A DNA stretch of 64,000 bases from Pseudomonadaceae bacterium (GTDB taxonomy: Bacteria; Pseudomonadota; Alphaproteobacteria; UBA2136; UBA6156), in assembly GCA_024236095.1 (NCBI GenBank), contig JACKLD010000013.1, forward strand, positions 142,368 to 206,367, written 5' to 3'. The notes under the pieces are model-generated. The model was not told the origin of the DNA, made no database searches, and saw nothing but the letters and a program-made list of their open reading frames with translations. Below are positions 8,520 to 58,751 of the stretch, in pieces. A program made the translations under genes and the position numbers. Positions within the stretch are counted from its first letter, which is position 1. Each line of letters starts with the position of its first letter.

Positions 8520-8536
8520 CCCCAAGGAGAACCGCC

Positions 8537-10207: not shown

Positions 10208-10227
10208 GTGTGCACCGCCTGCGACAG

Positions 10228-10252
10228 AAAGCCCCCGTGTGGGGCTTTTGTC
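10228..10252 (+). terminator. Hairpin plus T-run between nusA and infB (agcccc gtgt ggggct tttg); possible attenuator
   Basis: Read directly; 20 nt after the nusA stop. Confidence 0.35.
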
Positions 10253-10324
10253 TTGCCCTCCCTTGACATTATGCCCCCAAACAGGCACAACGCCGCTTGA
10301 ATAGGCAAAGACAAGGATGCGCGC

Positions 10325-37689: not shown

Positions 37690-37800
37690 TTACCAAGCCT
37701 TGATGTCCGGCGTTTCAATCGGCGGCAAACGCTCCAACTGCGGACCACTCGCGCAACCGGCCAGCACACAAGCAATAAGGGCAAACCACAGGCGTGTCAT
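37690..37800 (-). CDS. Unlisted 36-aa putative lipoprotein MTRLWFALIACVLAGCASGPQLERLPPIETPDIKAW
   Basis: Found by manual minus-strand translation; lipobox LAGC; lies 10 nt downstream of the 122-aa ORF after rpoD; weak RBS. Confidence 0.3.
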   Translation of the reverse strand: MTRLWFALIACVLAGCASGPQLERLPPIETPDIKAW

Positions 37801-42697: not shown

Positions 42698-42712
42698 GGC
42701 GGTGGTCAAAAC

Positions 42713-42742
42713 AAGAAAGGCCCCCGCAGGGGCCTTTCTTGT
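42713..42742. terminator. Bidirectional hairpin between greA and the convergent lipoprotein gene (aagaaaggcccc cgca ggggcctttctt)
   Basis: 12-bp perfect stem. Confidence 0.55.
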
Positions 42743-42751
42743 GCGTGCCGC

Positions 42752-43027
42752 TTAGTAGCAGGCGCGGTGGAAGGTCACACCGTTGTGGGTGTGGGCCTTG
42801 GTGCCACCGTTGGGGCAACCGGCGTAGTGCACCATGCCGTGGATCATGTGCATGGTGGGGGCGGCCACGGCAGGCGCGCCAGCCTTGATGTTGTGGATGT
42901 TTTCAATCGCGCGGCATTCGCCATCGGCGAGGTTGATGCCGGCGTAGGGGCAGGTTTCATACTGCGGGGTGGTGCTGCAGGCGGCCAGGGTGGCAGCGGC
43001 GGCAGCGGCAAGAACGAGATGTTTCAT
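42752..43027 (-). CDS. Small Cys/His-rich lipoprotein, paralog A of an uncharacterized family
   Basis: Signal peptide plus lipobox LAAC; mature part TCPYAGINLADGECRAIENIHNI...HYAGCPNGGTKAHTHNGVTFHRACY aligns with the product of 55101..55418. Confidence 0.6.
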   Translation of the reverse strand: MKHLVLAAAAAATLAACSTTPQYETCPYAGINLADGECRAIENIHNIKAGAPAVAAPTMHMIHGMVHYAGCPNGGTKAHTHNGVTFHRACY

Positions 43028-43063
43028 GGGGGTATCCTATTCACTGTGCTGTTGGTTTGCGGA

Positions 43064-43078
43064 GCGCAACGGTTGCGC
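43064..43078. promoter_or_regulatory. Perfect palindrome GCGCAAC-g-GTTGCGC upstream of lipoprotein A; candidate operator
   Basis: Read directly; about 40-50 bp upstream of the start codon at 43027. Confidence 0.3.
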
Positions 43079-43138
43079 CCAACGGCTCGGAATACACCAT
43101 AGTTTCAAAAAGCGCGCAAGGGTAACGCTTGGAAAAAG

Positions 43139-43411
43139 CTAGCGCGGGTTTGAAGGAATGGAAGAGATGTCAAGCCGGGAAACGTCAATTCGCTTTGCCT
43201 GCCCGACATGGGTGAAAAGAAACCCCGCTTCCGCCAACTGCGCGCGGTGGGCGTGGCCCAACGACCCCTCGTGTGCGGCGCGTTCCACCATCTCCATGGC
43301 GGGGGCGTAAAGGGGGCTGCCGGCCAGCGCTGTGCGGCTGTTGCGTTGCATGGCGCCGCAAATCTGCGCTACGGCCATGTTCATATTGAGGGTTGGAATA
43401 TCGTTGCTCAT
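43139..43411 (-). CDS. Hypothetical protein (90 aa) between tsaC and lipoprotein A
   Basis: ORF only. Confidence 0.3.
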   Translation of the reverse strand: MSNDIPTLNMNMAVAQICGAMQRNSRTALAGSPLYAPAMEMVERAAHEGSLGHAHRAQLAEAGFLFTHVGQAKRIDVSRLDISSIPSNPR

Positions 43412-43443
43412 ACGTCGTTATGTATACATAAAAAGGGTGGGTG

Positions 43444-44001
43444 TCAACGCAACCATTGGCCGTTTTGCGGGTTGAAAATCCGGCTTGGCATTCCGGACAG
43501 GGGTTGTGGCAGGGACAATGCGGGAGTCTCGGCAGGCAATTGGCAGGCTTGCGTGGCGGGAGGTTCGCCGGAAAGGTTGCAGCTGGTCGAAACCAATGGC
43601 CCGCCGGCAGCGCGCAGGTATTCTTGCATGTAGGGGCATGCAGGCAAGCGGATGGCCAGCGTCTCGCGCCCGCCGGTCAGCAGGATAGGCAAGGTGGGCA
43701 GGGCGGGCAAAATCAGGGTGACGGGCGGGGTTTGCGGGCCCCAGTGGGTGTGGATGGCCTCGACGCATGCCTTGGGCAACGGGTGGGGGCACAGATATGC
43801 CAGCTGGTCGGTGTGACCGATGAGCGTGATAAGCCCTTTGCGTTCGTCGCGCCGTTTCAGCCTGGTTATTGCTTTCAGTGCCGCCGGGTTGAACGGGTCG
43901 GCGCAGTAGCCGTACATGCCTTCGGCCGGAGCGATGGCCACCTTGCCTGCGCTGATGGTGCGGACAAAATCATGCAATTGCGGGTCGGGCCATGTGGACA
44001 T
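43444..44001 (-). CDS. tsaC: L-threonylcarbamoyladenylate synthase TsaC/YrdC
   Basis: KVAIAPAEGMYGYCADPFNPAALKAITRLKRRDERKGLITLIGH; start at 44001 inside listed ORF 43444..44142. Confidence 0.85.
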   Translation of the reverse strand: MSTWPDPQLHDFVRTISAGKVAIAPAEGMYGYCADPFNPAALKAITRLKRRDERKGLITLIGHTDQLAYLCPHPLPKACVEAIHTHWGPQTPPVTLILPALPTLPILLTGGRETLAIRLPACPYMQEYLRAAGGPLVSTSCNLSGEPPATQACQLPAETPALSLPQPLSGMPSRIFNPQNGQWLR

Positions 44002-44683
44002 GCCTCGTTGTAATATGTATACATATGGCCATGCAAGCGCGAAATGTCCCGTTGTTGAAAACCATGTCACGTTTGATGGCCGTGGCCGAATGCCGCGCCC
44101 CTCTTGCCGACCGTGTTGGGTCCATGACCGCTTTGGCGTCACGTTGCCCTGCGACGCTGTCGGTGTGGGCCTGTAACATGCCGTACGATACTAACGACCG
44201 GTTCAATCCCGAACTGCAACAATGGCAATTCCATTTGCTGCTGCGTGATGAACGGGGCTATGTGATAGAACTTTAACGCTTGCTTTTTGGAGGGGGCGCA
44301 GAAGCCTCGCGGGCTTTGCGTTCATCCGCCAAGGTTTCCTCTACCAAGCTGTGCAGGCATTGCAGATGTTGGGCACCGTCCCCCGAAACCCACGGCGCCA
44401 ATGCCAGAAGATGCAGGCGCATCTCCACCAGTTTGGCTGCAACGTTTTGTTTATCTCCCACGCTTTAATGCTACATCCATGATATATTGCTTGGCAACCT
44501 TTATCTCCTTGATGCTGTTTCCAACACCTTGATTTCATGTGGTTGCATGCCAGCGAAAGCTGACATGCCGCCGCGATGCCCCAACAAGCGCTTGACACCG
44601 CCCGCAAAGCCATGTACCACCCGCACAAACCCGTGCCGTGCGCCCCGTGCGGCCAACCGCGTACCCAAAGGAAAGCAACCACC

Positions 44684-44878
44684 ATGGCCAGCAAAGCCAA
44701 AGGCAACATCTACATCAAACTGGTCAGCCAGGCTATCAATCCTGCCACCGGCCGCAAGACCGGGTACTTCTACGTGACCAAGAAGAACCCCAAAAACAGC
44801 ACGGAAAAATTCGAGTTCCGCAAGTACGACCCGGTGGTGCGTCAACACGCCATCTTCAAGGAAGAGAAGATGAAGTAA
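44684..44878 (+). CDS. rpmG: 50S ribosomal protein L33
   Basis: [64 protein letters not shown]; RBS aaaggaaag; candidate -35/-10 TTGACA...TACCAC upstream. Confidence 0.88.
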
Positions 44879-44900
44879 CCTTGGGGTTTCTTCAGGTTCA

Positions 44901-44925
44901 ACGGCCCTGCGGGGCCGTTTTTTTC
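44901..44925 (+). terminator. Intrinsic terminator after rpmG (acggccc tgc ggggccgt ttttttt)
   Basis: GC stem plus a T7 run; core CGGCCCTGCGGGGCCG also occurs at 55441-55458. Confidence 0.7.
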
Positions 44926-45706
44926 AAAGTGCCAGTTCCACTTCAATCGGAATATGGTCGGACGGCTGCTCCTTGCCGCGTTCGTCACGGTAATGCGTCA
45001 CGTTTGCCACCTTGGCTTTCAGCGCATCGCTCACAAAGAGGTAGTCGATCCGCATGCCGCGATTGTTCACAAAGGCGTAGCTGCGGTAATCCCACCAGCT
45101 GAACAGCCCGGCTTCGTCGGTGGTCAGTCGCAGGGCATCATGCAAGTGGTCTCCCGCAAAGGTTTGCAGCCAACCGCGCTCGGCGGAGGTGAACATGCAC
45201 TCCTTGCTGCGCTTGGCGGGGTTGTCCACATCGCGTTCATCGGCCGAGATGTTGAAATCACCGCCGACCACCAGCTGCGGAAACGCCGCCACTTCCCGTG
45301 CCGCCCAAGCGGTGAGGTGGGCGTAGAATTCCTCTTTGAACACGAATTTGGGGCTTTGCGTGCTCTCGCCGTTGGGGACATAGGCGCTGGCCACGCGGAG
45401 GTTGCCCTTGGGGTGTGCCACAGTGGCGGCGATCAGCCGCGCATGGTCGGCAAACACGTCGCCGTGAAAGCCTTGCTCTACATCGCCTAACGGGTGGCGG
45501 CTGACAATGGCGACGCCGTTGTAGCTCTTTTGGCCATGGATGGCCACGTGCAACCCGCGTTCCTCAAATGGTGCGCGCGGGAACATCTCGTCGGCCACCT
45601 TGGTTTCCTGCAACAGCAGCACGTCGGGCTGGTGGGCATCCCACCACGCCAGCACATGCCCCATGCGGGTGCGCAACGAGTTGACGTTCCAGCTGGCAAT
45701 CTTCAT
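44924..45706 (-). CDS. xthA: Exodeoxyribonuclease III
   Basis: MKIASWNVNSLRTR...LQETK...DFN...SDHIPIEVEL; start at 45706 inside listed ORF 44924..45766. Confidence 0.9.
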   Translation of the reverse strand: MKIASWNVNSLRTRMGHVLAWWDAHQPDVLLLQETKVADEMFPRAPFEERGLHVAIHGQKSYNGVAIVSRHPLGDVEQGFHGDVFADHARLIAATVAHPKGNLRVASAYVPNGESTQSPKFVFKEEFYAHLTAWAAREVAAFPQLVVGGDFNISADERDVDNPAKRSKECMFTSAERGWLQTFAGDHLHDALRLTTDEAGLFSWWDYRSYAFVNNRGMRIDYLFVSDALKAKVANVTHYRDERGKEQPSDHIPIEVELAL

Positions 45707-45823
45707 GGCACCAATGTACGACAACCGCCGCGCTTTTGCCACGCTGCCTGCCTGCCAGCTGGCCAATGGGCTGGCGGTGGCGGCGTCTTTCGGCTAACGT
45801 GCGGCAAAACAAGGAAAACCCTG

Positions 45824-47959
45824 GTGGCAAAACCCGTTGCCAAGCTGATGCAAACCTACACCGCGTGGTTGCGCAACATGGCGCAGTACGGCGCTGCCGT
45901 GGCGCGGGGGCTTATTTTGCTGGGTATCTGGGGTTTGGCGCTGTTCGGTTGGAGCACCCTGGGCGAAGATGCCCTGCGCCGCCGTTTGCCGCCGGTGCAT
46001 GCCGCCGCCCAATCCTATGCCGAGGCTGTTGGCACATACTTGCAAGGGTTGGCAGCCACCCTGCAACCTTTGGCCGAAGATCCGCGCTTGGTACAGGGCG
46101 TGGCCTCCGATGACGGCATCACCTCGCTGGAAGTACGCCGGGCCATGTACGAGTTCGGATATCTCAATCGCCTCAACCAGCTTTATATCTGGGAGGAGCA
46201 AAGCGGCACGGTCGGCCAATTGGCCGGCAGCCGTGAATTGCCGTCCGAGGTGGCGGTTTGGTTGGGTAAACTGGATGAGCAGCCGGTGGCCCTTGCCGTC
46301 TTTGATATTTCCACCCGCCCCCAACTGTATTTGGCGATGCATGCCGCCGATTCTGCCACGCATGTCTATGTGGTGATGCCTGCCAGTTGGCAGGGCTTGC
46401 TGCTGGGCCAGCCTCGTGCGCCGGTGCTTGGTGGCTTTGGCAAGGCGGAAACCTTCATGCTGGTATCGCAAAACGGCAGGCTCTGGCAGGCACCGAGGCT
46501 TAGTCGCGAGCGCCCGCGCCTGATGACCGAGTTGGATGCGGTTGCCGCGTCCACGGTTGCCAAGGCGCCAAACGGCGACATTATCGTTGCCGCGCCGGTG
46601 CCGGGCGTGGCGGGCTGGGGGGTGGCCTATCGGCTGCCGCCTTCGGTCGCCTTGGGCGCCAGCCGCATGGCGCAATGGGGGGTTATCCTTGCCGCGTTGT
46701 TGGCCAGTATCGCCGTCTTGTGGAAACCCACCCGCCCCGCCCGCCGCAAGGTGGCGGCCAAACTGGCGCCGCTGGCGGGAGTCATTACCCCGCTGACCAC
46801 CCCGCTCATCAGCAGTGTGGCGGCGGTGATGAAGGGCGAGCGCCAGCCGCCCGCGCAGGCGCAAGCCATCATCCAACCCGGCCAGTTCAAGCAGGAAGAG
46901 CTGGCGGGCGGCCAGCCCCAACGGCGCGGCAAGGCCATGCAGTTCGGCAGCAATCCGCCTCGCCCGGCGGCCAAGGTGATGACCGCCCCCAGCAACTACA
47001 TGCCCACTGAGGCCGCCGCAGCATCGTCATCCGCCGCCGGTCGCCCCAAAAAAGCCCCGGTGCTCACCGATGCCATGGCCCGCTTGGTGGATGAATGTCT
47101 CACCCAAGGGCGCTCGCAGTTGCTGTATCAACCCATTTATCAGGTCAGCACCGGCAAACCGGCGTTCCATGAGGTGTTGCTGCGTCTTATCGACCGCGAC
47201 GGTAATCCGGTCAGTCCCGGCGCGTTTTTGCCGGTATGCGAGCAGCACGGCTGGCTCGACAGGCTCGATAGCCATGTGCTTGACCGCGTGCTGGAGCTAA
47301 ACTTTGCCGGTGGTTTGCATCCGGCCACGCCGCTGACCCTCAATCTGGCCGGTGCCAGCATGGACAGCCTCGACTACCTGCAAAAATTGCTGACGCTGGA
47401 TGATGCCGAGGTCATCAAGCATCTGGTGCTGGAAGTCAGCTCGCAGGAATTGCTGAAAGACCCCACGGCCATCGACTTCCTGCGCGAGGTGCACGAGGCC
47501 GGTGCCAAACTCAGCGTGGATTATTTCGGCGGCGGCCCCACCATGTTGCAGGCCAGCCAGAAGATGGGCTTCGACATGCTCAAAATGGACTGTGCCCGGA
47601 TGGGCGGCGATACCGCCGCCAAGCGCGAGGTGCTGATGTTGGCGCAAGCCGCCAAACGCACCGATGTGGCACTGGTGCTGGAAAAAGTGGAAACGGTGGA
47701 GATGGAGGTCTTCGCCCGCCGCGCCGGGGTGAAGTTCCTGCAAGGCTACCTGCTGGGCAAGCCCAAGCCGGATTTGGTCTCGGCCACGCTTCCCGGCTGG
47801 AGCGAAATGGCGCGCATGGAAAAAGAGCAGGTGTCTTCTGAAGATGAAGCTGCCCAAGAGCCGGAAGCCGCGCCGGAGGGGGTGGCCGACGACGCCGCTA
47901 CTGAAGCTGGCGATACAAATGCACCGCCACCTGCTCTCCCAGACTCATCTTCAAAATAA
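45824..47959 (+). CDS. Membrane sensor EAL-domain c-di-GMP phosphodiesterase (two TM segments flanking a periplasmic domain; EVL variant of EAL)
   Basis: TM1 GLILLGIWGLALFGW, TM2 GVILAALLASIAVLW; EAL fold LLYQPIYQVSTGKPAFHEVLLRL...VDYFGGGPT...; GTG 45824 after aaggaaaa (alternative ATG 45848). Confidence 0.85.
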   Translation: MAKPVAKLMQTYTAWLRNMAQYGAAVARGLILLGIWGLALFGWSTLGEDALRRRLPPVHAAAQSYAEAVGTYLQGLAATLQPLAEDPRLVQGVASDDGITSLEVRRAMYEFGYLNRLNQLYIWEEQSGTVGQLAGSRELPSEVAVWLGKLDEQPVALAVFDISTRPQLYLAMHAADSATHVYVVMPASWQGLLLGQPRAPVLGGFGKAETFMLVSQNGRLWQAPRLSRERPRLMTELDAVAASTVAKAPNGDIIVAAPVPGVAGWGVAYRLPPSVALGASRMAQWGVILAALLASIAVLWKPTRPARRKVAAKLAPLAGVITPLTTPLISSVAAVMKGERQPPAQAQAIIQPGQFKQEELAGGQPQRRGKAMQFGSNPPRPAAKVMTAPSNYMPTEAAAASSSAAGRPKKAPVLTDAMARLVDECLTQGRSQLLYQPIYQVSTGKPAFHEVLLRLIDRDGNPVSPGAFLPVCEQHGWLDRLDSHVLDRVLELNFAGGLHPATPLTLNLAGASMDSLDYLQKLLTLDDAEVIKHLVLEVSSQELLKDPTAIDFLREVHEAGAKLSVDYFGGGPTMLQASQKMGFDMLKMDCARMGGDTAAKREVLMLAQAAKRTDVALVLEKVETVEMEVFARRAGVKFLQGYLLGKPKPDLVSATLPGWSEMARMEKEQVSSEDEAAQEPEAAPEGVADDAATEAGDTNAPPPALPDSSSK

Positions 47960-48335
47960 CCGAGTCGAATTCGTCTTTTAAAAGCTCGCGGGCCACATGG
48001 CCGAAAAGGGCGGTAAATTCACGTTGTACCGCCCGCAGGTTGCGTTGGCGGCCGGCCGGCGAGGTGTTGGCTTGCGGCGGCTGTGCCAGTGCCAGCACCA
48101 CCCGGGGCGGGGAGGCAAACAGGGAAGGGGCGGTGGCTTCAAGCGGCAGGGACACGGCCTCTGGTGGGGAAGAAGCGTTGGCCAACAACGGTTGCCATGC
48201 CCACAATGTCAGCGCCCACAGGCCCGCCGTCAGCGCCAGCGTCAGCGGAGCAGGCACCTGCGCGGGCTTTACGCGCCCATGCAGCAGCGTCTCGCGGCTG
48301 GGCAATTCCACGGCGGTAACTGATGCAGGCGTCAT
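47898..48335 (-). CDS. Hypothetical membrane protein (about 145 aa) overlapping the 3' end of the EAL gene antisense
   Basis: ORF with one hydrophobic segment (LTLALTAGLWALTLWAW); a 62-bp convergent overlap makes it doubtful. Confidence 0.3.
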   Translation of the reverse strand: MTPASVTAVELPSRETLLHGRVKPAQVPAPLTLALTAGLWALTLWAWQPLLANASSPPEAVSLPLEATAPSLFASPPRVVLALAQPPQANTSPAGRQRNLRAVQREFTALFGHVARELLKDEFDSVILKMSLGEQVAVHLYRQLQ

Positions 48336-48403
48336 CGCCGATTTATGGCACAAGGGCCAAAACCCTGCTGACATTCGGTCCGCAAACGTATACCCTAAAG
48401 CCC

Positions 48404-49273
48404 ATGACCCGTAGCGCCATGCCCGCCGAGACAACCCCCGACATGCAAGAACTGGCACAGCGCAGCACGGTGGATTTGCGCTTGGTCAACGCCATGGCGG
48501 GGGAGCGCGAAATGAACGCCCGCGAGCAGCAGATGGTCGATAAACTCAAGTCCGAGCGCGGCGAAGGGCTGTTCTCCGACATGCTCTACACGCTGACCCG
48601 CCGCAATTTCCCCAGCCGTCAGGCCAAAACCCTGTGGGCGGATATCACCGGCCACCGTGTCAACCTGAAAAAGCTGCTGGGCCGCGACCCCGGCCTGTCG
48701 TTGGCGGCGCACGACTACCTCACCAATGTGTCGGGCCTGATGCGCAACGTCGGCATGATCGAGGAAGGCAAATTCAACCTGCTGGCCACCGTGGCGGTGC
48801 ACGACGGCCTGACCGGCCTGTACGATAAAACCACCTTCGCCCAAATGTTGAAAGACGAGCTGGAACGCGCCCTGCGTTATGGCCGTCCGCTGACGCTCAT
48901 CATGGCCGACATCGACCACTTCAAGCACCTCAACGACACTTACGGCCATGCCGATGGCGACGTGGTGCTGGCGCAGGTGGCCGACATCATCCGCAAACAT
49001 TGCCGCAGCACCGATGTGGCGGGCCGCTTCGGCGGTGAGGAGTTCGCCGTGTTGCTGCCGGAATCCACGCCGGAAACCGGCCGCATTTTTGCCGAGCGCG
49101 TGCGCGTCTCGGTGGAAAGCCACTTCGCCGATACCCCCTACAAAACCACCCTTAGCCTCGGCGTGGCGGGGGCGCAAACCGGCGACGATGCCACCACCCT
49201 CACCAAACGCGCCGACGCTGCGCTGTATGAGGCAAAAAATGGTGGGCGCAACCGTGTTTGTGGCGGTGCGTGA
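48404..49273 (+). CDS. Diguanylate cyclase (intact GGEEF)
   Basis: LTGLYDKTTFAQMLKDELERA...DIDHFKHLNDTYGHADGDVVL...RFGGEEFAVLLPES; ATG 48404 inside listed ORF 48323..49273. Confidence 0.88.
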   Translation: MTRSAMPAETTPDMQELAQRSTVDLRLVNAMAGEREMNAREQQMVDKLKSERGEGLFSDMLYTLTRRNFPSRQAKTLWADITGHRVNLKKLLGRDPGLSLAAHDYLTNVSGLMRNVGMIEEGKFNLLATVAVHDGLTGLYDKTTFAQMLKDELERALRYGRPLTLIMADIDHFKHLNDTYGHADGDVVLAQVADIIRKHCRSTDVAGRFGGEEFAVLLPESTPETGRIFAERVRVSVESHFADTPYKTTLSLGVAGAQTGDDATTLTKRADAALYEAKNGGRNRVCGGA

Positions 49274-49276
49274 CGT

Positions 49277-51058
49277 TTACCCAACTCTCCCATCCACCAC
49301 CTGAAAGTCTACCCGCTCGTTCCCCATGAAGGTGTTGATGCGCAAGTGACCGGCCAGTGTGAGGGCGTTGGCCTGTTTGGAAGTTAACGCCGGCCCCAGC
49401 GGCGTGTTCATCGCGCCAAAGGCGATGGCATCCAGCTGGCTGCCATCGGCGCCCGCCAGCCGCAGCTTCAGGTGCTCTTGTGTCTTCCCCACCGGTTTGG
49501 CATAGGCCACCTGCACTTTGGAAAGCGCCAGCAACGGTTCCGGATTGCCATTGCCGAACGGCTCCAGCCGGGTGAACAGCCGTGCCAGCTCCACCGTGCA
49601 ACTGGCAGGAATCACTTCGGATTCCAGCGTCAAGGTGGGGGCCAGATGGGTGGCCAGCGGCACTGCCGCATCATAATCGGGCCGTGCCGTGACCTGCCCC
49701 AACACATGGGCGTTCAGCGCCGCACGCAGGGCATCCAGCTTGGCTGCGTCCAGCGTCAACCCCGCTGCCATGGCGTGGCCGCCGCCGCTGACCAGCAGCG
49801 CTTGCGCCGCACCCACCGCCGCGCCCAAATCAATCCCCTCCACGCTACGCCCGCTGCCTTTCAGCGTGCCGCCCTCGCCACCGCCCAGAATGAAAGTGGG
49901 CCGCCCCGTGCGTTCCTTCACCCGGCTGGCCGCCAACCCCACCACGCCCGGGTGCCATGCTGGGTTGGCCAGCACCAGCAGCGCGGTGGTGTCGTCCACC
50001 ATTGCTTCCGCCATTGCCATCGCCTCCGCCACCGTGGCTTGCTCCAGTTCACGGCGCTCGTGGTTCAGCGCATCCAGCTGCCGTGCCAGCGGCAACGCCG
50101 TGCTGTCGTCATCGGCCAGCAGCAGCTCCACCGCCGCCAGCGCGCTTTCCAGCCGCCCTGCCGCGTTCAGTCGTGGCCCAAGCGCAAAGCCAAACGTGCT
50201 GGCGGAAAGGTTGTCTTTCACGCCGGCCACCTCGGCCAACGTCGCCAACCCCCGATGCCGCCATGTGCCCAACTGTTGCAAGCCTTTGGCCACCAGAATG
50301 CGGTTGGCGGCGGTCAGCGGCATCACGTCGCACACCGTGGCCAGCGCCACCAAATCCAGCCATTGGCCCAGCTTGGGCTCGGGCCGTGTGGCACTGAAGA
50401 ACCCCCGTTCCCGCAGGTACCTGTTCAGCGCCATCAGCAGGTAAAACGCCACACCGGTGCCGCACAAACCTTGCAGATCGGAAGTGTCATCTGCCCGGTT
50501 GGGATCGACCAACGCCACGGCAGGCGGCAACGGCCCGTGGGGCGGGTGATGGTCGGTCACCACCACGTCCATGCCCAGCCGTTGCGCTTCTTCCAGCGCG
50601 GTTTGGGCGGCGATACCGGTATCCACCGTCATCACCAGCTGCACCCCTTTGCCGTGCAACACTTGCATTGCGGCGGGCGAGGGGCCGTAGCCTTCGGTTA
50701 ACCTGTCGGGCACATAGCGCAGCGGCTCCACCCCCAGCGCACGGAAATACCGTGTCATCAACGCCGTGGCGGCGGTACCGTCCACGTCATAGTCACCGAA
50801 CACCGCGATGCGTTCGCTGTTCTCCAGCGCCGCCGCCACCCGTGCCACGGCAACATCGATGTCTTTCAGGGTCGCGGGGTCGGGCAGGGCACCCAGGTTG
50901 GGAGATAAAAACGCCTCGGCCTGTTCAATCGCGTCATACCCACGTCCGGCCAGAATGTTGGCAACCACCGGGTGCAGCCCGCTGACCTGCGCCAGCGCCG
51001 CGCCCGCCCGCTGGTGGCCGTTTGCCATACGCCATTTTTTGCCGGTCAAACTCAACAT
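49277..51058 (-). CDS. recJ: Single-stranded-DNA-specific exonuclease RecJ
   Basis: DHH motifs (IAVFGDYDVDGTAATAL...VVTDHHPP) and DHHA1. Confidence 0.92.
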   Translation of the reverse strand: MLSLTGKKWRMANGHQRAGAALAQVSGLHPVVANILAGRGYDAIEQAEAFLSPNLGALPDPATLKDIDVAVARVAAALENSERIAVFGDYDVDGTAATALMTRYFRALGVEPLRYVPDRLTEGYGPSPAAMQVLHGKGVQLVMTVDTGIAAQTALEEAQRLGMDVVVTDHHPPHGPLPPAVALVDPNRADDTSDLQGLCGTGVAFYLLMALNRYLRERGFFSATRPEPKLGQWLDLVALATVCDVMPLTAANRILVAKGLQQLGTWRHRGLATLAEVAGVKDNLSASTFGFALGPRLNAAGRLESALAAVELLLADDDSTALPLARQLDALNHERRELEQATVAEAMAMAEAMVDDTTALLVLANPAWHPGVVGLAASRVKERTGRPTFILGGGEGGTLKGSGRSVEGIDLGAAVGAAQALLVSGGGHAMAAGLTLDAAKLDALRAALNAHVLGQVTARPDYDAAVPLATHLAPTLTLESEVIPASCTVELARLFTRLEPFGNGNPEPLLALSKVQVAYAKPVGKTQEHLKLRLAGADGSQLDAIAFGAMNTPLGPALTSKQANALTLAGHLRINTFMGNERVDFQVVDGRVG

Positions 51059-51113
51059 GAGCGCCACTCTAACAAAAAACCGCCCCGGTGGGGCGGTTTT
51101 TGCCAAAGGAAAA

Positions 51114-51521
51114 TCACTTGGTTGAAGTCGAGGAGGTTTTGAGGTTCTCGGCCACGACCTTGCCGATGATCTCGGTAGCCTTCACCTGGCATTGCTGCAA
51201 GGTCTTGGCCAGTTGCTGGGCGTTGCTGGAGGCGTTTTCGCTGGCCTTTTTGCTCCAGCTGGCCTGCTTGCTCATCAATTCTTCCAGACCTTGTGCCTTG
51301 CTCATGTCTTGCATGCAGGCCGCGCTGCTTTCCATCATTTGCTTGGCCATGTCCATTTGCTGTTGGTAGCAGTCGCTGCAGGCTTGGGTGTAAAGGGTTG
51401 CCAGCTTTTGGTACACCTCGGCGTTTTGGCTCCATTGCTGCTGGCTCCAGAACGATTGCATCATCTGCATGGTGGCTTGCGGGTTGAACATGTCTTGCAT
51501 GTTTTGGAACATGGCGGGCAT
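51114..51521 (-). CDS. Phasin-family (PHA granule-associated) protein candidate
   Basis: Q/M/A-rich helical 135 aa (MPAMFQNMQDMFNPQATMQMMQSFWSQQQ...); RBS agaagg; family call by composition only. Confidence 0.5.
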   Translation of the reverse strand: MPAMFQNMQDMFNPQATMQMMQSFWSQQQWSQNAEVYQKLATLYTQACSDCYQQQMDMAKQMMESSAACMQDMSKAQGLEELMSKQASWSKKASENASSNAQQLAKTLQQCQVKATEIIGKVVAENLKTSSTSTK

Positions 51522-51603
51522 CCTTCTGTTATTGGCTGTTGCAACACATCGTTGCGCAGGGGGCAAAGGTTGTCAAATCAAATTGTGCGCCGCACAAAAT
51601 TTT

Positions 51604-52998
51604 TCAATCCCCCTGTTTTATGCTGGCCGCCTTCACCCGGCTGTTGCCGAAGACGTTGTTGTTCACCGGCGGCGCGGCAGGTTTGGAGCTGCCCGCCTGG
51701 ATGATTTTTTTCTCGATTTGCTGCACGTTGCTGGCGTATTTGGCCTCGGGCTTTTCAATCAGGTTGACGTTGTCGGCATAGCTGGCCTCGGGCTGTTCCA
51801 CCAGTTGGGTGGCGCTGGAGAGCAGGGGCTCCTTCCAGGCCAAACTTGGCGGGTGGCCCACCTTGTGCCAGTTACCGGTGGCAAAGCGGTCGGGACGGAA
51901 GGGCTGCATGTTGACCGCCGGTTGCTTGCCTTGCACCAAATCAGCCAGTACCCGTGCCGCACCGGCGGCAAAAGCGTAGCTGCGGGCACCAAAGCCGGTG
52001 GCGATGTACAAACCTTTCATCCCCTCCCAAGTGCCCAGTGCCGGGCGGAAATCCGGTGTTACCGCCGCCGTGCTGACACTGACCTGCTGCACCGTGGCAT
52101 TGGCCAGATGGGGCAGCAGCTCTCCCACATGTTGGGCCAACGCCTTTACGATCCGCTCGTCGGCATGGCCGCTGAAAGTGGCCTGCGTGGGGTCCATGAT
52201 GCCATCATACGCCAGCATCACCGGTCCTTCGCGGGTGCGCTTCAGCCACAAATGGCCGCGCCGCAGGCGGTGCATCAGCATCGGGAAGCCGATGCCCTCG
52301 GCGCTTTCCAAGGTAACCAGGTGGGTGCGCGCCGGACGGATGGGCAGGCGCGGCCCCACCGTTTTCAACATGCTGCCTGCCAAGGTGCCTACCGTAATCA
52401 GCGTGTGGGCGGCAAGGCAGGTCTCGCCGCTGGCCACCCGTACGCCGGTGAAGGTGTCGCCTTCGCTCAACAGTTCCACCACGGAATCCTGTCCCCAAAT
52501 CCGCACGCCCTTGGTGGTGAGTTCGCGGCGCAGGGTTTCCAGTGCGGTGTGGGTGGAAAGCACCGGTGCGTCGGCCCACCATTTGCCGCCGCGCACGCTT
52601 TCGGCCAGCGGGGTGTCGGCATGGGTGGCGGCTCCGGCAGCGTCTACCCATTGCGAGATGATCTTGCGGGGGCTCTCGCCCTGCACTTCGGCGGCCAGCA
52701 TGGTGGCGCGTCCGGCGCTGCTGGCGATATCAAGCAGACCGCGTTCGGCCAGCCCCACATCCACCCCGTAGCGTTTGCCGACATCTTGCCAGCAGCGCAG
52801 GGAATAATCGTACAGGCTGTCCAGCAGCGCGTCGCCGCCGATTGGCGCCATCTCGCCCACATGGGTGCGGATGGGCCCCGAAAAATCCTTGTCCACCAGC
52901 CGTACGGTCAGCCCGGCCTCCACCAGCTCGCGGGCGGCCAGCAGGCCCACGATGCCGCCACCCAGCACCAACGCGTCGACGGTATCGGCCTGAGTCAT
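51604..52998 (-). CDS. FAD-dependent oxidoreductase (DAO/glycine-oxidase-like) with repetitive C-terminal extension
   Basis: N-terminal Rossmann DALVLGGGIVGLLAARELVEAGLTVRLVDK. Confidence 0.85.
   Translation of the reverse strand: MTQADTVDALVLGGGIVGLLAARELVEAGLTVRLVDKDFSGPIRTHVGEMAPIGGDALLDSLYDYSLRCWQDVGKRYGVDVGLAERGLLDIASSAGRATMLAAEVQGESPRKIISQWVDAAGAATHADTPLAESVRGGKWWADAPVLSTHTALETLRRELTTKGVRIWGQDSVVELLSEGDTFTGVRVASGETCLAAHTLITVGTLAGSMLKTVGPRLPIRPARTHLVTLESAEGIGFPMLMHRLRRGHLWLKRTREGPVMLAYDGIMDPTQATFSGHADERIVKALAQHVGELLPHLANATVQQVSVSTAAVTPDFRPALGTWEGMKGLYIATGFGARSYAFAAGAARVLADLVQGKQPAVNMQPFRPDRFATGNWHKVGHPPSLAWKEPLLSSATQLVEQPEASYADNVNLIEKPEAKYASNVQQIEKKIIQAGSSKPAAPPVNNNVFGNSRVKAASIKQGD
51729..51812. 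repeat. Imperfect 42-bp tandem duplication within the 3' end of the oxidoreductase gene (encodes EQPEASYADNVNLI / EKPEAKYASNVQQI)
   Basis: Read directly on the plus strand. Confidence 0.6.
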
Positions 52999-53070
52999 GG
53001 GGCAGGTTGCTTTCTTTTGCCGCCAGAATAGCTTGACACGGCCGCGCCATCAAGGTGACTGTGCGGCACA

Positions 53071-53997
53071 ATGCACCAAGCTGCGCCATCTTGTCACGTT
53101 GCCACCCGCCGCCTGCCGGGGGCGCCGTTGCGGGCGGCACTGGCTGCGCAGGTGCCCGCCGCCGTGGCGGCACTTCCGGCGCCGCCCAAGCTGGTGGTGG
53201 TGCGGGTGGGCGACGATCCCGCCAGCAAAGCCTTTGTCGGACATAAGCTGAAGTTGTGTGCCGGTGTGGGGCTTCCCGCCGAAGAGCTTCACCTGCGCGC
53301 CGACGAGGCCGAAGCCACCCTGCATGCCACCCTGCGCGCCTTGGCCGATGATGACGCGGTGCAGGCCGTTATCCTGCAGTTGCCGTTGCCGGCGGGATGG
53401 CAGGTGGACGCGGCGCTCAACCTGATTCCGCCCCACAAGGATTGCGATGGCCTTACCGCCGCCAATATCGCCGCACGGCAGGCGGGGCACCCGCATATCG
53501 CTCCGGCCACCCCATTGGGGGTGATGCGTTTGCTGGCGTCCATCCCCTACGATGTACGTGGCAAGCACGTAGCGGTTATTGGCAAGGGACGCGTCGCGGG
53601 CCAGCCCATGCGCGAGATGCTGGAGGCCGCAGGCGCCACGGTTACTGCCATTGACCGCGATACGCCGACACCTGCCACGTTGACATCGGTGTGCGATGTG
53701 GTCATCGCCGCTGCCGGAGTGCCGCATCTGGTGAACGAGAACTGGCTGAAACCCGGTGCCCTCGTGGTGGATATCGGTCTCACCCGCGTGGAAGGCAATG
53801 GCCAGACCCGTCTGCTGGGCGATGTGGACGCCATGAAGGTCGAGGGGGTGGCCGCGTACCTGACTCCGGTGCCGGGCGGCGTGGGGCCGCTGACCGTGGC
53901 CAGCTTGCTGACCAACGTGGTGGACTGTGCCCGCCTGCAAGCCGGATTGCCGCCATTTGCATGGCAGGTTCCGTTGCTTGACAGCTCTGCCGTGTAG
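53071..53997 (+). CDS. folD: Bifunctional methylenetetrahydrofolate dehydrogenase/cyclohydrolase FolD
   Basis: LVVVRVGDDPASKAFV...DGLTAANIA...VIGKGRVAGQPM...TPVPGGVGPLTVA. Confidence 0.92.
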   Translation: MHQAAPSCHVATRRLPGAPLRAALAAQVPAAVAALPAPPKLVVVRVGDDPASKAFVGHKLKLCAGVGLPAEELHLRADEAEATLHATLRALADDDAVQAVILQLPLPAGWQVDAALNLIPPHKDCDGLTAANIAARQAGHPHIAPATPLGVMRLLASIPYDVRGKHVAVIGKGRVAGQPMREMLEAAGATVTAIDRDTPTPATLTSVCDVVIAAAGVPHLVNENWLKPGALVVDIGLTRVEGNGQTRLLGDVDAMKVEGVAAYLTPVPGGVGPLTVASLLTNVVDCARLQAGLPPFAWQVPLLDSSAV

Positions 53998-54013
53998 GCG
54001 CACCTTCTTGCCC

Positions 54014-54370
54014 ATGCGTATGCTGTTGTTGGTTCTATTACTGCTGTTGCCGCCGTTGGCGCAGGCGGTACCGTGCGTGATGACCCAACCCGCCGCCTAT
54101 CATGTTTCCGTGGCCAAACCTTGCGCCATGGCCATGCCTGCCGCGTCTGTCGCCAAACAGGCGATGAGCGTGGCCGAGTGCTTCAAGGCTCCGGCCACCG
54201 TGCCGCCGGCCCGTGCATTGCCGGTGTCGGCACCGTACGGTGTTGGGGCCATACCCATGCCGCCCGTTGTCGGCGCTGCATATCGCCTAACCCATGCCCA
54301 GCCACTGCGTCCGCCGCCGCTGGTATCGCCGCGACGCATGCTGGCCGACCAGCAGCGCTGGCTGATTTAG
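54014..54370 (+). CDS. Hypothetical secreted Met/Cys/Pro-rich protein (118 aa)
   Basis: Signal peptide MRMLLLVLLLLLPPLAQA; low-complexity mature part; ATG 54014 inside listed ORF 53927..54370. Confidence 0.35.
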   Translation: MRMLLLVLLLLLPPLAQAVPCVMTQPAAYHVSVAKPCAMAMPAASVAKQAMSVAECFKAPATVPPARALPVSAPYGVGAIPMPPVVGAAYRLTHAQPLRPPPLVSPRRMLADQQRWLI

Positions 54371-54449
54371 AGTTTCCCCGCCCCTGTTTTTTGCCTGCAC
54401 GGATAGGCCGTGCGGGTGTCATGATGATGACCAATGAAGGATAACCAAA

Positions 54450-54953
54450 ATGAATACTGCTAAACTCGCAACCTTGACCATTGCCACCTTGATGATGGCA
54501 GGCGTGGCTCATGCCGACCATATGGGCGACAAACCCTGCGACAAAATGCACGCAGGAAAACCCTGCCCGATGATGTTGCATCAGCAAGGCCATGGTGCCC
54601 ACGCGGGCCATGCCAAAGCCGGTGCGCTGAAGGGAGACAACGGCCCGTCCAGCCAAGCGTATGACCATGCCAACATGGTGATGCACCAGGGCATGGACAT
54701 CGTCTTTACCGGTGATGCCGATATCGACTTCCTGCGCGGCATGATCGCCCACCACCAAGGTGCGGTGGACATGGCCAAGGTACAGCTGCAATACGGCAAA
54801 AACGCACAGGTGAAGAAGCTCAGCCGTGAAATCATCCGCGCGCAAGAGCTGGAAATCAGCTGGATGAAGGGCTGGCTGGCCCAGCTGGAAGGCCGCCCGC
54901 ACACTGCCGACACCAAAACGTGGATTGGTGAAGACAGCATGCTTTACAAGTAG
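54450..54953 (+). CDS. DUF305-family periplasmic protein with His/Met-rich N-terminal stretch
   Basis: Signal peptide; HMGDKPCDKMHAGKPCPMMLHQQGHGAHAGHAKAG; DUF305 core DIDFLRGMIAHHQGAVDMAKVQL. Confidence 0.85.
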   Translation: MNTAKLATLTIATLMMAGVAHADHMGDKPCDKMHAGKPCPMMLHQQGHGAHAGHAKAGALKGDNGPSSQAYDHANMVMHQGMDIVFTGDADIDFLRGMIAHHQGAVDMAKVQLQYGKNAQVKKLSREIIRAQELEISWMKGWLAQLEGRPHTADTKTWIGEDSMLYK

Positions 54954-54966
54954 ATGCATGCTGCTC

Positions 54967-54999
54967 AAATAGCCCCCCGCAGGGGCTATTTTATTGTTT
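54967..54999 (+). terminator. Intrinsic terminator after the DUF305 gene (aaatagcccc ccgca ggggctattt tattgttt)
   Basis: 9-bp stem plus a T-rich tail. Confidence 0.6.
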
Positions 55000-55100
55000 G
55001 TTCGGTTTACTTATTGTTTCTTGATGCTTCGGGTGTTAAGTAAGGATGTACGCATGTAGGATACCCTGTATGCTGCGAATATAAATAAGGAGCAAAACCC

Positions 55101-55418
55101 ATGAAATCCGTTATTACCTTGGCGCTGCTCGGCGTGGTGGTTGCCACTGCCGCCTGTACCGCCCACAAGCCTTACCCTGACGTGCGCTACAAGACATGTC
55201 CGTTCGCCGGTGTGGAAATCATCGACCAGCGCGAGTGCTTGGCGATTGACAGCATCCACAACATCAGCCCGGACATCGGCCAGAAAGTGGACATGAACAA
55301 GGTCGACAACCGCAAGACCTACATCCACCGCAAGGCGCACTACCAGTGCAAGTTCGGCGGTACCAACCCGCACCACCACAACGGCATCGTCTACCACTCT
55401 TCTTGCTACGCCAAGTAA
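55101..55418 (+). CDS. Small Cys/His-rich lipoprotein, paralog B
   Basis: Signal peptide plus VATAAC; KTCPFAGVEIIDQRECLAIDSIHNI...HYQCKFGGTNPHHHNGIVYHSSCY; RBS aaggag. Confidence 0.65.
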   Translation: MKSVITLALLGVVVATAACTAHKPYPDVRYKTCPFAGVEIIDQRECLAIDSIHNISPDIGQKVDMNKVDNRKTYIHRKAHYQCKFGGTNPHHHNGIVYHSSCYAK

Positions 55419-55434
55419 GGGTGATGCCTACTGA

Positions 55435-55460
55435 CACAACGGCCCTGCGGGGCCGTTGTG
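55435..55460. terminator. Hairpin between the convergent lipoprotein B and P-loop genes (cacaacggccc tgcg gggccgttgtg)
   Basis: 11-bp stem; same core as the rpmG terminator. Confidence 0.5.
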
Positions 55461-57407
55461 TTATTCCTTCTTGCCAAGGCCGATCATCGCCACCCCGGCA
55501 AACCCTGCCAGTGCCAGCGTAAGCCCGATGGCCTGCCCCATGTTTTGGCTCATGGTGATGATCGCCCCGATGCCGCCAATCAGCCCCAACGGCAGCAAGA
55601 CGGCGAAGATCTGTTGGAGGCCGAAGCCTTCATCAAGCATCTGCAAGCCGCCGAACTTTGCAGGGTCTTGCTTCTTGGCCTGTTGCAGGGCGCGCTTTTG
55701 CATGGCGGCGATGCCGTGGGCCGGGTCGTCCATCAGCCTGTAGCTTCCCTCAAAGGCCGCCAAGATCTCCTGCACGGTGCTGAAGCCGCCGTTGCTGGCG
55801 GTCTGGGCAATCAGCGGGCTGTACAGAACGTTGGTCTGTCCGCCACGCCCCCATGCCTGGTACAGGCTGCCCAACACGTTGCTGCGCGGCATGAACTTCA
55901 GGCGCGGCTGGTTGCTGCCGGTGCCCGCAGCCAACAGGTGTTCAAGGCTCCAGCGTACAAACCACGGTTGCAGTTTGTCCCACAGGTCGGGGCGGATGCG
56001 CGCCTGCTCTTCTTCTTGTAAAACGGTCAGAAGACTATCGCACAGCGGCAAAAGCTGGGCATCGGCCACCACCTCGTCGGCAGGGAATGCCTGTGGTTGT
56101 CGCCGCTCGCGCAGCGGCGTCAACGTCACCGCCCACAGCCGCCAATAACTCATGCCGCTGTTGCCGAACAGGTGGCTGAGTTCCGGGTCGGGGTAACTTC
56201 CGGCACGCCAATACTGGGCATTCAGCGAGATGTTTAGCAAAATCTGGTCGAATGACGGTTTTGGTGCCCCTTCCGCCAATGTGTTCATATAGCGGCTGCG
56301 CACCAGCCATGGCATCTGGCTGGTTTTGACCGGCAATTGCGCCAGCTTGGGCGAAATCTCTTCGTATGTGGCATAGGCCCCGGCCAGCAAGCTCTCCATC
56401 TCGCTGACATGGGGCAGGGGTTCCTTGCGGTGCAGGCTGTCTTCCAGAATGCGCGGCCGCAGCAATCCCGCATAAATCGCGGCACCGCCCACAACGTCCA
56501 TCATCATGGTTTTCAGTTGCAACAGGTCGTCTTCTTGCCAGTGCTTGGGGTCGATCGCCGCCATTTGGGCCCAGGCCTTCAGGGGCATGCCGTGGTAGGC
56601 GGTCAGTCCTTCTTCGTTTTGCAGCAGGTTGACATGCAGCAACCCTGCATCGCGTATCCACATCATGGCGCGACCGCCGTCATGCTGGGCCTCGGTGGCC
56701 ACGCCATGGTAGCGGAAGTAAATCATGGTCGCCAAATCGTGCTTGTCGTTGGCGATCATCGCCTTTTGCGCATAATCACGGGCGTCGGGCAACACCTCGT
56801 TGTGGCCAAGACTCACCATGAAGTATTGGAACTGGCTCAATAAAAACAGCAGTGCATTGTTGTTGGGCTCGTTGCGCAGGGTGTTTTTCAGAATGGTATG
56901 AACATCGGTGTAGCGCTGCTCCAAGAAGGCCTTGTAGGCGTTTTTCAGTTTCAGCAGGGTGGTTTTTCCGGGGCCGGCCATCATCACGGCCTCGTCGCCG
57001 ATACGGCTGATTTCATGCTCGACCAACCCTGCAAAGTGCTGGCTCGGAGGTGCCAGCGCGGCGGCCTCGGCCGATGGGGCCGGTTGTATCAAAACGCGGG
57101 CAATGGCTTGTCCCAGCGCGGCGGCATAGCCGTTGCCCACTTGCGGGGCGGCAGGTGCCACGGTTGCAGCCTCGTCCGGCAGGCCGAACTCGGCAATGCG
57201 GCGGTAGGCGGTACGGTCGGCCTCGGCAGCCTGCTTGAGCAAAACCATGATCGCCTGTACATCGGCGGCCAGTTGCAGGCTGCGCAGGGTTCCCTGCGGG
57301 GCGTCGTCATCGCGCCTGCGCCGGATGTTGGACGTACGTGCATGCTTGGCTTGCTCGTCCAGTTTTCCGCGCAACTCCAGAATACCCTGCACCAGCCGAC
57401 GGCTCAT
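55461..57407 (-). CDS. Uncharacterized 648-aa protein with a Walker-A-like motif (AGPGKTTLL) and a C-terminal double transmembrane anchor
   Basis: Long ORF; start overlaps the stop of the upstream DsbA-like gene (ATGA); C-terminal IFAVLLPLGLIGGIGAIITM...IGLTLALAGFAGVAMIGL; no Walker B recognised. Confidence 0.7.
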   Translation of the reverse strand: MSRRLVQGILELRGKLDEQAKHARTSNIRRRRDDDAPQGTLRSLQLAADVQAIMVLLKQAAEADRTAYRRIAEFGLPDEAATVAPAAPQVGNGYAAALGQAIARVLIQPAPSAEAAALAPPSQHFAGLVEHEISRIGDEAVMMAGPGKTTLLKLKNAYKAFLEQRYTDVHTILKNTLRNEPNNNALLFLLSQFQYFMVSLGHNEVLPDARDYAQKAMIANDKHDLATMIYFRYHGVATEAQHDGGRAMMWIRDAGLLHVNLLQNEEGLTAYHGMPLKAWAQMAAIDPKHWQEDDLLQLKTMMMDVVGGAAIYAGLLRPRILEDSLHRKEPLPHVSEMESLLAGAYATYEEISPKLAQLPVKTSQMPWLVRSRYMNTLAEGAPKPSFDQILLNISLNAQYWRAGSYPDPELSHLFGNSGMSYWRLWAVTLTPLRERRQPQAFPADEVVADAQLLPLCDSLLTVLQEEEQARIRPDLWDKLQPWFVRWSLEHLLAAGTGSNQPRLKFMPRSNVLGSLYQAWGRGGQTNVLYSPLIAQTASNGGFSTVQEILAAFEGSYRLMDDPAHGIAAMQKRALQQAKKQDPAKFGGLQMLDEGFGLQQIFAVLLPLGLIGGIGAIITMSQNMGQAIGLTLALAGFAGVAMIGLGKKE

Positions 57408-58273
57408 GGTATCAGCTCCCGTTGGCGCGGGCGGTTCAGCTCGTACGTCACCACGTCATCCAGCGTTTCCAGCGGCAGGCCGTTCATCCCCACATGGATG
57501 CCGTTGACCAGAACATGGGGCGGGTTGCCCACGTTCAACTGTCCGGCCAGCCGCGCATCGGCATCCAGCTCGCGGTAAAAGCGGCGGGCTTCGGTTTGCA
57601 TCAGCCGCCGGGCCTCCAGCCGGTCCATACCGATGGCGATAAGCGTATCGAAATAGCTTTCCGGGGTGGGGTTTGCCAGCGTCTCCAGTGCGTTGCGGTA
57701 TTCCCAGAACACGCCGCCGCGCTGCGCAACCTTGCCGTAAAAGGCTGCCATGTTCACGTCGTTGAATTGCTTGACCGGCGTATGGATGTTCACCACCCTC
57801 AGTTTGCTGGGATGCGCCGCCAGCAGGGCATCCACTTTTTTCAGGGTGTCCATGCATTGCACGCAGGAAAGGTCTGTCATTTCAATCAGGGTCACCAAGG
57901 CGTCATCCGGCCCTTTGGCCGGGTTGTGGGAAAACGGGTTGAAGCGCAGGCGCGTCTGCAAAAAGTGCTTGCTGGCATCGGTTTGCAACTGTTCGGGGGT
58001 GGCGGCCAGCAGCTCCTGCTCGAACAGCATGTCGCTGGTAATCACCTGCTGGGCGCCGGTACTGACGTGGGGCAGGGTGGGAGTGCTGGTGAGAATCTTG
58101 CCGGTGTGCGAGCGCACCACGCCGCTTTCAGCCTTGCCGCCGCCATGGCCGCTCGCTTCTTTGGCTGGCCCGGCAGCAGGCTCGATGGCGGCCGCATCAT
58201 GGGTTTGCCACCACACCGCAGCAGGAGCCGCCAGCAGGGCCAACAACAGAAACGGCGTCAATCGGTGCAGCAT
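57404..58273 (-). CDS. DsbA-like thioredoxin-fold protein with signal peptide and unusual CVQC active site
   Basis: MLHRLTPFLLLALLAAPAAV; DLSCVQC...NPPHVLVNGIHVG is the DsbA-family pattern; start at 58273 inside listed ORF 57404..58435. Confidence 0.8.
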   Translation of the reverse strand: MLHRLTPFLLLALLAAPAAVWWQTHDAAAIEPAAGPAKEASGHGGGKAESGVVRSHTGKILTSTPTLPHVSTGAQQVITSDMLFEQELLAATPEQLQTDASKHFLQTRLRFNPFSHNPAKGPDDALVTLIEMTDLSCVQCMDTLKKVDALLAAHPSKLRVVNIHTPVKQFNDVNMAAFYGKVAQRGGVFWEYRNALETLANPTPESYFDTLIAIGMDRLEARRLMQTEARRFYRELDADARLAGQLNVGNPPHVLVNGIHVGMNGLPLETLDDVVTYELNRPRQRELIP

Positions 58274-58403
58274 GGGTATGGTTTTTTCAAAAAAATAGCG
58301 GGAATTGCCGCGCACAGCCATGGCACAATGCAAAGGCGGCCCATACCCTGTTGCCTGCCGCCCACGATGCCCGTATAACGGAGGCACAAGGGAGGAAGAA
58401 GCC

Positions 58404-58751
58404 ATGCCGTTCGTTGTCACCGGAAAATGCATCAAATGCCGCTATTCCGACTGTGTGGAAGTATGCCCGGTGGACTGCTTCTACGAAGGCGAAAACATGC
58501 TGGTCATCAACCCCGATGAATGTATCGACTGCGGCGTGTGCGAGCCGGAGTGCCCCATTGAGGCCATCAAGAGCGACGACGAGCTTTCCAACGACGAACT
58601 GCACTGGGCCGATGTGAACGCCAAATACAGCGCCACCTGGCCGAACATCAAGGAAACCCGTGGCCCGATGCCCGAGGCCGAGAAATACGCTGAAATGGGC
58701 GCGGAAGAGAAAAAGCCGATGTTCAGCGAGAAGCCGGGTGACGGGAAGTAG
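58404..58751 (+). CDS. fdxA: 7Fe ferredoxin (FdxA type)
   Basis: [18 protein letters not shown]...[12 protein letters not shown]; RBS ggagg. Confidence 0.9.

Follow-up and report, generated by a model that had tools for sequence, protein, structure and literature searches.

In a 64-kb stretch of DNA (64,000 nucleotides; hereafter the window) from a bacterial metagenome-assembled genome (MAG), we found two small paralogous lipoprotein genes, paralog A (42752-43027, minus strand) and paralog B (55101-55418, plus strand), which define a new, previously undescribed and lineage-restricted protein family. Paralog B lies downstream of a gene for a CopM-type DUF305 protein and of a secreted Cys/Met-rich open reading frame (ORF), which we call orfX. 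We tentatively favour, with a probability of about 45%, the reading that the lipoproteins are membrane-anchored mini-proteins facing the periplasm, which would carry one disulfide in each of two modules together with a four-His metal site, and which would serve as a metal buffer or as an exchange partner of CopM and orfX. The family probably falls within a known functional category. It also shows that a clearly conserved protein of 75 residues can be all but unique in a collection of more than 5 billion protein clusters.

The precursor encoded by paralog A has 91 amino acids and a mature length of 75 residues (lipobox LAAC, lipidated Cys17), and that of paralog B has 105 amino acids and a mature length of 87 (lipobox TAAC, Cys19). 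Both start with MK followed by a hydrophobic stretch and the lipobox, and BLASTP aligned them over the entire mature length with 39% identity (E 2e-17). Translation, BLASTP and the lipoboxes thus bore out a preliminary description of the window, which had placed two homologous lipoprotein ORFs at these positions. A related metagenomic genome, L001, has orthologs of both, at 72-73% identity. Both genes are under purifying selection, with ratios of nonsynonymous to synonymous substitution rates (dN/dS) against the L001 orthologs of 0.37 (A) and 0.33 (B), which are close to those of the neighbouring folD (0.28) and the DUF305 gene (0.21); the ratio of orfX is 0.41. The start codon of paralog B is preceded by a strong AAGGAG Shine-Dalgarno sequence, and the NCBI annotation lists both paralogs as coding sequences (CDS) for a 'hypothetical protein' (H6922_03785 and H6922_03865). 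From the conservation, the dN/dS values, the Shine-Dalgarno sequence and the presence of their own terminators we conclude that A and B are genuine protein-coding genes. The dS of A and B, at 0.58-0.65, lies below that of the neighbouring genes (~1.0-1.6), and over a run of ~41 nucleotides within the B CDS (55264-55304), which codes for the B-specific linker ISPDIGQKVDMNKV, the window and L001 do not differ even at synonymous sites; this identical run and the low dS may reflect codon bias or an additional constraint.

All nine family members examined by regular expression contain a lipobox ending at Cys16-19, and all nine have the same signal layout, namely a Lys-containing n-region, an h-region of 10-14 hydrophobic residues and a lipobox with an invariant Cys. 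This is the signal of bacterial lipoproteins processed by Lgt and signal peptidase II (PROSITE PS51257-type), which the family shares with generic bacterial lipoproteins and which denotes a targeting class, not a functional family. The lipobox of A, LAAC, is canonical; that of B, TAAC, has a Thr at position -3, which is non-canonical yet allowed by the PROSITE pattern, and the Pfam model LPAM_1 scored below threshold on the lipoproteins (13.4 bits, cutoff 20). At position +2 the members have S, T, A or E but no Asp, which hints that the proteins may be anchored in the outer membrane, although the +2 sorting rule stems from E. coli and may not apply in the host lineage.

The family is confined to a narrow group of carriers. 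A full HMMER profile search over 1.84 billion representatives recovered 6 clusters in total, while single-sequence word-index searches over 5.8 billion protein clusters gave back nothing but each query and one ortholog; a profile word-index search added the member P0009 and a cluster look-up added P0010, giving a family of ~10 sequences from ~7 genomes, which belong to one uncultured and apparently alphaproteobacterial clade. Scans of one genome per GTDB species and of the JGI metagenome contigs yielded no relatives, the PLSDB plasmids held no family member, and a literature search for the family found nothing. When A, B and all homologs were scanned with Pfam, NCBIfam and PHROGs, no family was matched and only sub-threshold matches to signal peptides appeared; likewise, searching the PDB by sequence, with the single proteins and with a profile, gave no match to the lipoproteins. 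As no profile match exceeded the thresholds of Pfam, NCBIfam or PHROGs, the assignment of A or B to a named family was dropped. These scans agree with the preliminary description, which had been unable to name a family for either protein, and the profile search that it had proposed as a check matched no characterised non-metal family. Copper-protein families were not matched either: the models of CusF, CopK, CopC, PCuAC, DUF1541/CopL, NlpE and HMA matched none of the eight aligned members (hmmscan against Pfam-A, E <= 1), an NCBIfam scan for known copper-protein families likewise gave only weak signal-peptide matches among the members, and the DUF305 model matched neither A, B nor the other members at E <= 1.

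The alignment of the eight full-length members revealed a fixed set of candidate ligands. In addition to the lipid-attachment Cys, all eight share four Cys and four His at invariant positions, in the order C, C, H, H, C, H, H, C. In the numbering of mature A, the complete invariant set comprises the lipid Cys, T9, C10, A13, G14, C22, N30, I46, H47, H51, C55, G59, H63, H65, G67 and C74; in precursor numbering the Cys and His are C26, C38, H63, H67, C71, H79, H81 and C90 of paralog A, and C33, C46, H76, H80, C83, H91, H93 and C102 of paralog B. The preliminary description had counted four conserved Cys and six or more conserved His, and had named a lack of conservation of these positions in homologs as a refutation. 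Its Cys hold throughout the eight members together with four of the His, whereas the count of six applies only to the comparison of A with B, since two members have Tyr in place of the His of IHNI and the final (F/Y)H varies.

The invariant residues fall into two modules joined by a linker of variable length. The N-module, Y-x-T-C-P-(F/Y)-A-G-...-(E/D)-C-x-A-I-x-N-I-x-N-I, contains one Cys pair and, in most members, a His at IHNI; it is the best conserved part of the family, its CP(F/Y)AG and EC motifs being (nearly) invariant. The C-module, I-H-G-x-x-H-Y-x-x-C-x-x-G-T-x-x-H-x-H-x-G-x-x-Y-x-x-x-C, contains the second Cys pair and all four invariant His, and AlphaFold predicted it as two beta-hairpins with a predicted local distance difference test (pLDDT) score of 80-88. 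Altogether, His makes up 7-11% of the mature full-length members. A variant member, P0007 (L010 1288-1602), which occupies the slot after DUF305, consists of two N-modules with two Cys per copy and has neither a C-module nor any His; such a duplicated N-module with exactly two Cys in each copy argues that the modules are separable and that the Cys pair within a module.

The neighbours of paralog B suggest a link to copper. The product of 54450-54953 (plus strand) is a DUF305/CopM-family periplasmic protein that passed the cutoffs of both Pfam PF03713 (E 8.8e-33; 114 bits, cutoff 27) and NCBIfam CopM NF049983 (110.5 bits, cutoff 90). It resembles Synechocystis CopM in passing these cutoffs, in its predicted signal peptide and in its MxxHH motif, here MIAHH, which is invariant in four of four orthologs, and it has a Met/His/Cys-rich N-terminal extension, so the DUF305 neighbour with a Met/His-rich N-terminus named in the preliminary description was confirmed by Pfam and NCBIfam; the DUF305 proteins of L009 and L010 have Cys-rich N-termini. 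CopM binds copper in the periplasm and outside the cell (PMC4335983, PMC11836926); its dissociation constant (KD) for Cu(I) is ~3e-16 and it confers copper resistance (PMC4335983), and its MxxHH motif binds Cu(II) (PMC11836926). Unlike a copMRS-type operon, the window has no two-component system or resistance-nodulation-division (RND) pump near its DUF305 gene, which is paired with orfX instead. The lipoproteins share neither sequence nor predicted fold with CopM/DUF305, which is helical, whereas they are predicted to be all-beta. We also noted that distant DUF305 homologs of Paracoccus yeei (L021 5267-7738) and Brevundimonas (L026 2788-4872) adjoin heavy-metal P-type ATPases, the Paracoccus one carrying HMA domains; this adjacency supports a metal link for this DUF305 branch.

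The product of the second neighbour, orfX (54014-54370, plus strand), is secreted, rich in Cys and Met, and has three conserved Cys. The gene was already recognized in the preliminary description as a secreted Met/Cys-rich ORF, and it proved to be a real conserved gene, located directly 5' of DUF305 in the window and in four other genomes (L001 3860-4225, L009 8733-9197, L010 109-495 and L012 4562-4912). The orthologs have in common a signal peptide ending in AQA/AHA, the motif V-x-C-(V/L)-M, (P/T/A)-M after the second Cys, SVA(E/D)C and Met-rich stretches; orfX matched no Pfam or NCBIfam family, and four orthologs gave no Pfam match. The link between orfX and DUF305 is broader than that of the lipoprotein, since L012 has orfX without the lipoprotein.

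The order orfX-DUF305-family member was found in the window (with B), in L001 (with B and then A in tandem), in L009 and in L010, and a short contig, L091, begins inside DUF305 and continues into a family member, so that the adjacency of DUF305 and a member recurs in five genomes. In L001 (4926-5675) the B-type and A-type genes follow DUF305 directly, each with its own terminator. The end of the L001 contig we take, by eye, to be the C-terminus of rpoD, in which case its layout would read folD-orfX-DUF305-B-A-(small genes)-rpoD. In the window, paralog A is located ~12 kb from the DUF305 region, beside greA, dnaG and rpoD; comparison of the tandem in L001 with this 12-kb split indicates that a rearrangement divided a former tandem pair and that the split is secondary.

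Putting these observations together, we infer a small lipoprotein built of two modules, which would be anchored in the membrane and face the periplasm. Each Cys pair would close a disulfide within its own module, and a transition-metal site in the C-module would be made up of the four His, which stand in IH, HY and HxH on strands next to each other. Copper is our best guess for the metal, and would be the most likely one because of the CopM/orfX neighbourhood and the published biochemistry of CopM. The lipoprotein would then buffer the metal or hand it off to the adjacent secreted orfX and CopM-type DUF305, and it is probably a metal-binding accessory of CopM. If so, these small extracytoplasmic proteins would add a new sequence family, and perhaps also a new fold, to those known to bind metal, and orfX and the lipoprotein would be a candidate partner pair for CopM/DUF305, a widespread copper-resistance protein. 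The impact would be limited by the distribution of the family, which, with ~7 uncultured related genomes, explains little beyond that clade.

Several observations weigh against this proposal, and most of them favour a rival explanation, which we consider rather unlikely, namely that the protein is a lipoprotein of the envelope, stapled by disulfides, whose role does not involve metal (structural, docking, inhibitor or immunity-like), and in which the His would be structural or pH-sensing and the adjacency to DUF305 would be inherited synteny. Every carrier has the same chromosomal neighbourhood, including folD, DAO, phasin, recJ and rpoD, so the DUF305 adjacency could be historical; as all carriers form one clade with long-range shared synteny, the linkage amounts to about a single evolutionary observation, and the copper interpretation, plausible as it is, rests on the synteny of one lineage. 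Three of the ten family loci (window paralog A, P0005 and P0008) lie away from DUF305 beside housekeeping genes, P0005 and P0008 adjoining ribosomal-protein operons or rpoD. L012, which of the GTDB genomes sharing the DAO-folD-orfX-DUF305 synteny is the nearest, has no family member, and a six-frame hmmsearch within 5 kb of 79 GTDB DUF305 loci found none either, which indicates that orfX-DUF305 is the conserved core, to which a sub-clade added the lipoprotein as an accessory. Own terminators and promoters separate the lipoprotein genes from DUF305, and the intrinsic terminator after DUF305 (54967-54991, plus strand), which has an equivalent hairpin in L001, makes paralog B a separate transcription unit. 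We recognized no copper-responsive operator. The His-free P0007 occupies the DUF305 slot. Finally, the AlphaFold model of the whole protein is weak (pLDDT 65), and comparison of this weak model with PDB folds matched no known metal-binding fold; nor was any metal-protein family matched.

The wider context in the window also weakens the copper reading. The preliminary description had regarded the surroundings of paralog B as typical of periplasmic copper handling and had proposed to look for copA, cueO and cusF linkage across relatives. The recurrence of the CopM-type neighbour in five genomes agrees with that view, but the copper context consists of orfX and DUF305 alone: within the 64 kb we found no CopA, CueO/multicopper oxidase, CusF, CopC/D, PCuAC or metal-sensing regulator, and the remainder of the window is occupied by flagellar, respiratory (bc1) and housekeeping genes.

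On the other side, a His content of 7-11%, with four invariant His (IHG..H and HxH) on predicted adjacent beta-strands, would be unusual for a purely structural domain of 75 residues. Moreover, the gene has been kept beside DUF305 despite a DUF305 identity of only ~55-65% and local rearrangements, and a tandem duplicate has been kept at DUF305 in L001. These points argue against the rival explanation.

A bolder form of the metal-binding proposal takes the C-module for a mini-fold not seen before, in which a disulfide staples a double beta-hairpin with a four-His copper site; the C-module would act with orfX and CopM in a three-component relay or buffer in which the lipoprotein tethers metal or CopM to the membrane. 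We regard this as distinctly unlikely in its full form; if it were true, these would be the first identified dedicated partners for CopM/DUF305 proteins.

A further, clearly unlikely reading places the functional core in the Cys pair of the N-module, through Cu(I) thiolate binding or thiol-disulfide exchange in partnership with the Cys-rich orfX and DUF305 N-termini, and makes the C-module dispensable. P0007 would fit such a role, since with two N-modules, no C-module and no His it is still found in the DUF305-adjacent slot, and so would the three conserved Cys of orfX, the Cys-rich N-termini of DUF305 in L009 and L010, and the status of the N-module as the most conserved portion of the family. 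However, for Cys spaced 12 residues apart in an oxidising periplasm a structural disulfide is the simpler explanation, eight of nine members have the C-module with all four His unchanged, and P0007 is a single variant known from two short contigs. As for the reading that A and B are chance frames or pseudogenes, GC-rich DNA does hold many long spurious ORFs in all six frames, but this explanation has a negligible probability and is refuted by conservation and the selection signal, that is, by orthologs and paralogs in seven genomes with invariant Cys/His positions and by dN/dS of 0.33-0.37, with the lipobox, Shine-Dalgarno sequence and terminators in place and both genes called CDS by NCBI.

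Returning to the proposed copper-binding lipoprotein, we compared it with known copper binders of similar size or location. CusF, CopK, CopC and PCuAC are periplasmic, beta-rich proteins of 70-110 residues, which use His/Met ligands and are linked to copper-handling genes; the present family resembles them in size, in its expected periplasmic location, in its predicted beta structure and in its linkage to a copper gene. Those proteins are soluble, use mainly Met, His and Trp, and are not known to have conserved Cys pairs, whereas the present family is lipid-anchored, has four Cys and four His, and gave no Pfam match to them at E <= 1 and, with the weak model, no structural match in the PDB. 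CopL of Staphylococcus aureus, YdhK of Bacillus subtilis, DUF1541 proteins and NlpE/CutF are membrane-anchored lipoproteins implicated in extracytoplasmic copper binding or sensing, and their genes lie near those for copper handling; they are like the present family in being membrane-anchored lipoproteins near copper-related genes. DUF1541 is not known to have Cys pairs and NlpE uses a CXXC motif; besides giving no Pfam match, CopL/YdhK (DUF1541) and NlpE differ from the present family in motifs, phyla and envelope architecture.

Next to the genes we examined the possible regulatory elements. The preliminary description had pointed to a perfect palindrome, GCGCAACgGTTGCGC (43064-43078; 7+1+7), in the promoter region of A. 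The palindrome is present at this position, but it has no value as evidence: the window contains 8 perfect 7+1+7 palindromes against 8.5 +/- 2.9 expected under a first-order Markov model, and in L001 GCGCAACgGTTGCGC has not been kept in front of the A ortholog. As an operator it was therefore rejected for its chance frequency and lack of conservation. A better candidate for an operator or promoter is an AT-rich conserved region upstream of B (55003-55075, plus strand), the core of which differs less between the window and L001 than the CDS does; it contains an inverted repeat, TTACTTA (55007-55013) and TAAGTAA (55037-55043) separated by 23 nucleotides, which overlaps a promoter-like TTGTTT-N17-TAAGTA. 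We found no convincing motif common to the upstream regions of all members, scans with the sigma-70 consensus found nothing, and an Rfam scan of the whole window gave no matches.

Paralog A is followed by a terminator-like hairpin (42711-42742, minus strand) with a 14-bp stem and a folding free energy (dG) of -29.9, followed by UUUUG, which is shared convergently with greA and which falls one T below the T-run threshold of the terminator scan. Paralog B is followed by an intrinsic terminator with a 14-pair stem (55432-55463, plus strand). Between orfX and DUF305 there is a further, conserved stem-loop (54393-54417, plus strand; dG -18.6, 10 pairs); across five genomes both sides of the stem have changed in 5 of the 10 pairs in a compensatory manner, and the loop GGAUNG is conserved. 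As no T-run follows, it is not a classical terminator, and it may serve in mRNA processing, stability or regulation; this arrangement suggests that orfX and DUF305 are co-transcribed. At the 3' end of folD (53970-54016) we observed a promoter-like TTGACA-N17-CA(T/C)(G/A/C)(C/T)T, which in five genomes lies ~6-12 nucleotides before the orfX start, and its position suggests that the orfX mRNA may be leaderless or nearly so.

Other small lipoproteins are encoded around the family members. A Cys-rich lipoprotein of ~88 amino acids, with a faint to weak match to Pfam Aq_678, lies one gene past the member on the opposite strand in L009 (10614-10886, minus), L010 (1965-2228, minus) and L091 (1273-1539, minus). 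Mini-lipoproteins of 38-40 amino acids adjoin members in L011 and L001, and the one in L011 has a homolog in the window beside rpoD (37705-37800, minus strand). By eye, the ~88-residue lipoproteins and the mini-lipoproteins have a similar C-terminal stretch of the type LPPV(E/P)xP.

As to the source of the window, Alphaproteobacteria (MAGs or genera) account for nearly all of its closest syntenic relatives and DUF305 homologs, and Phasin_2 is encoded in it; the NCBI label 'Pseudomonadaceae bacterium' on the source MAG looks unreliable. The window also contains large ORFs with a gene-like GC content at third codon positions (GC3) and no Pfam match, one of which, 55461-57407 (minus strand, 648 amino acids), is located just downstream of paralog B, followed by 57404-58435 (minus, 343 amino acids), which contains C-V-Q-C; two more are found at 8504-11713 (minus, 1069 amino acids) and 13-2007 (plus, 664 amino acids).

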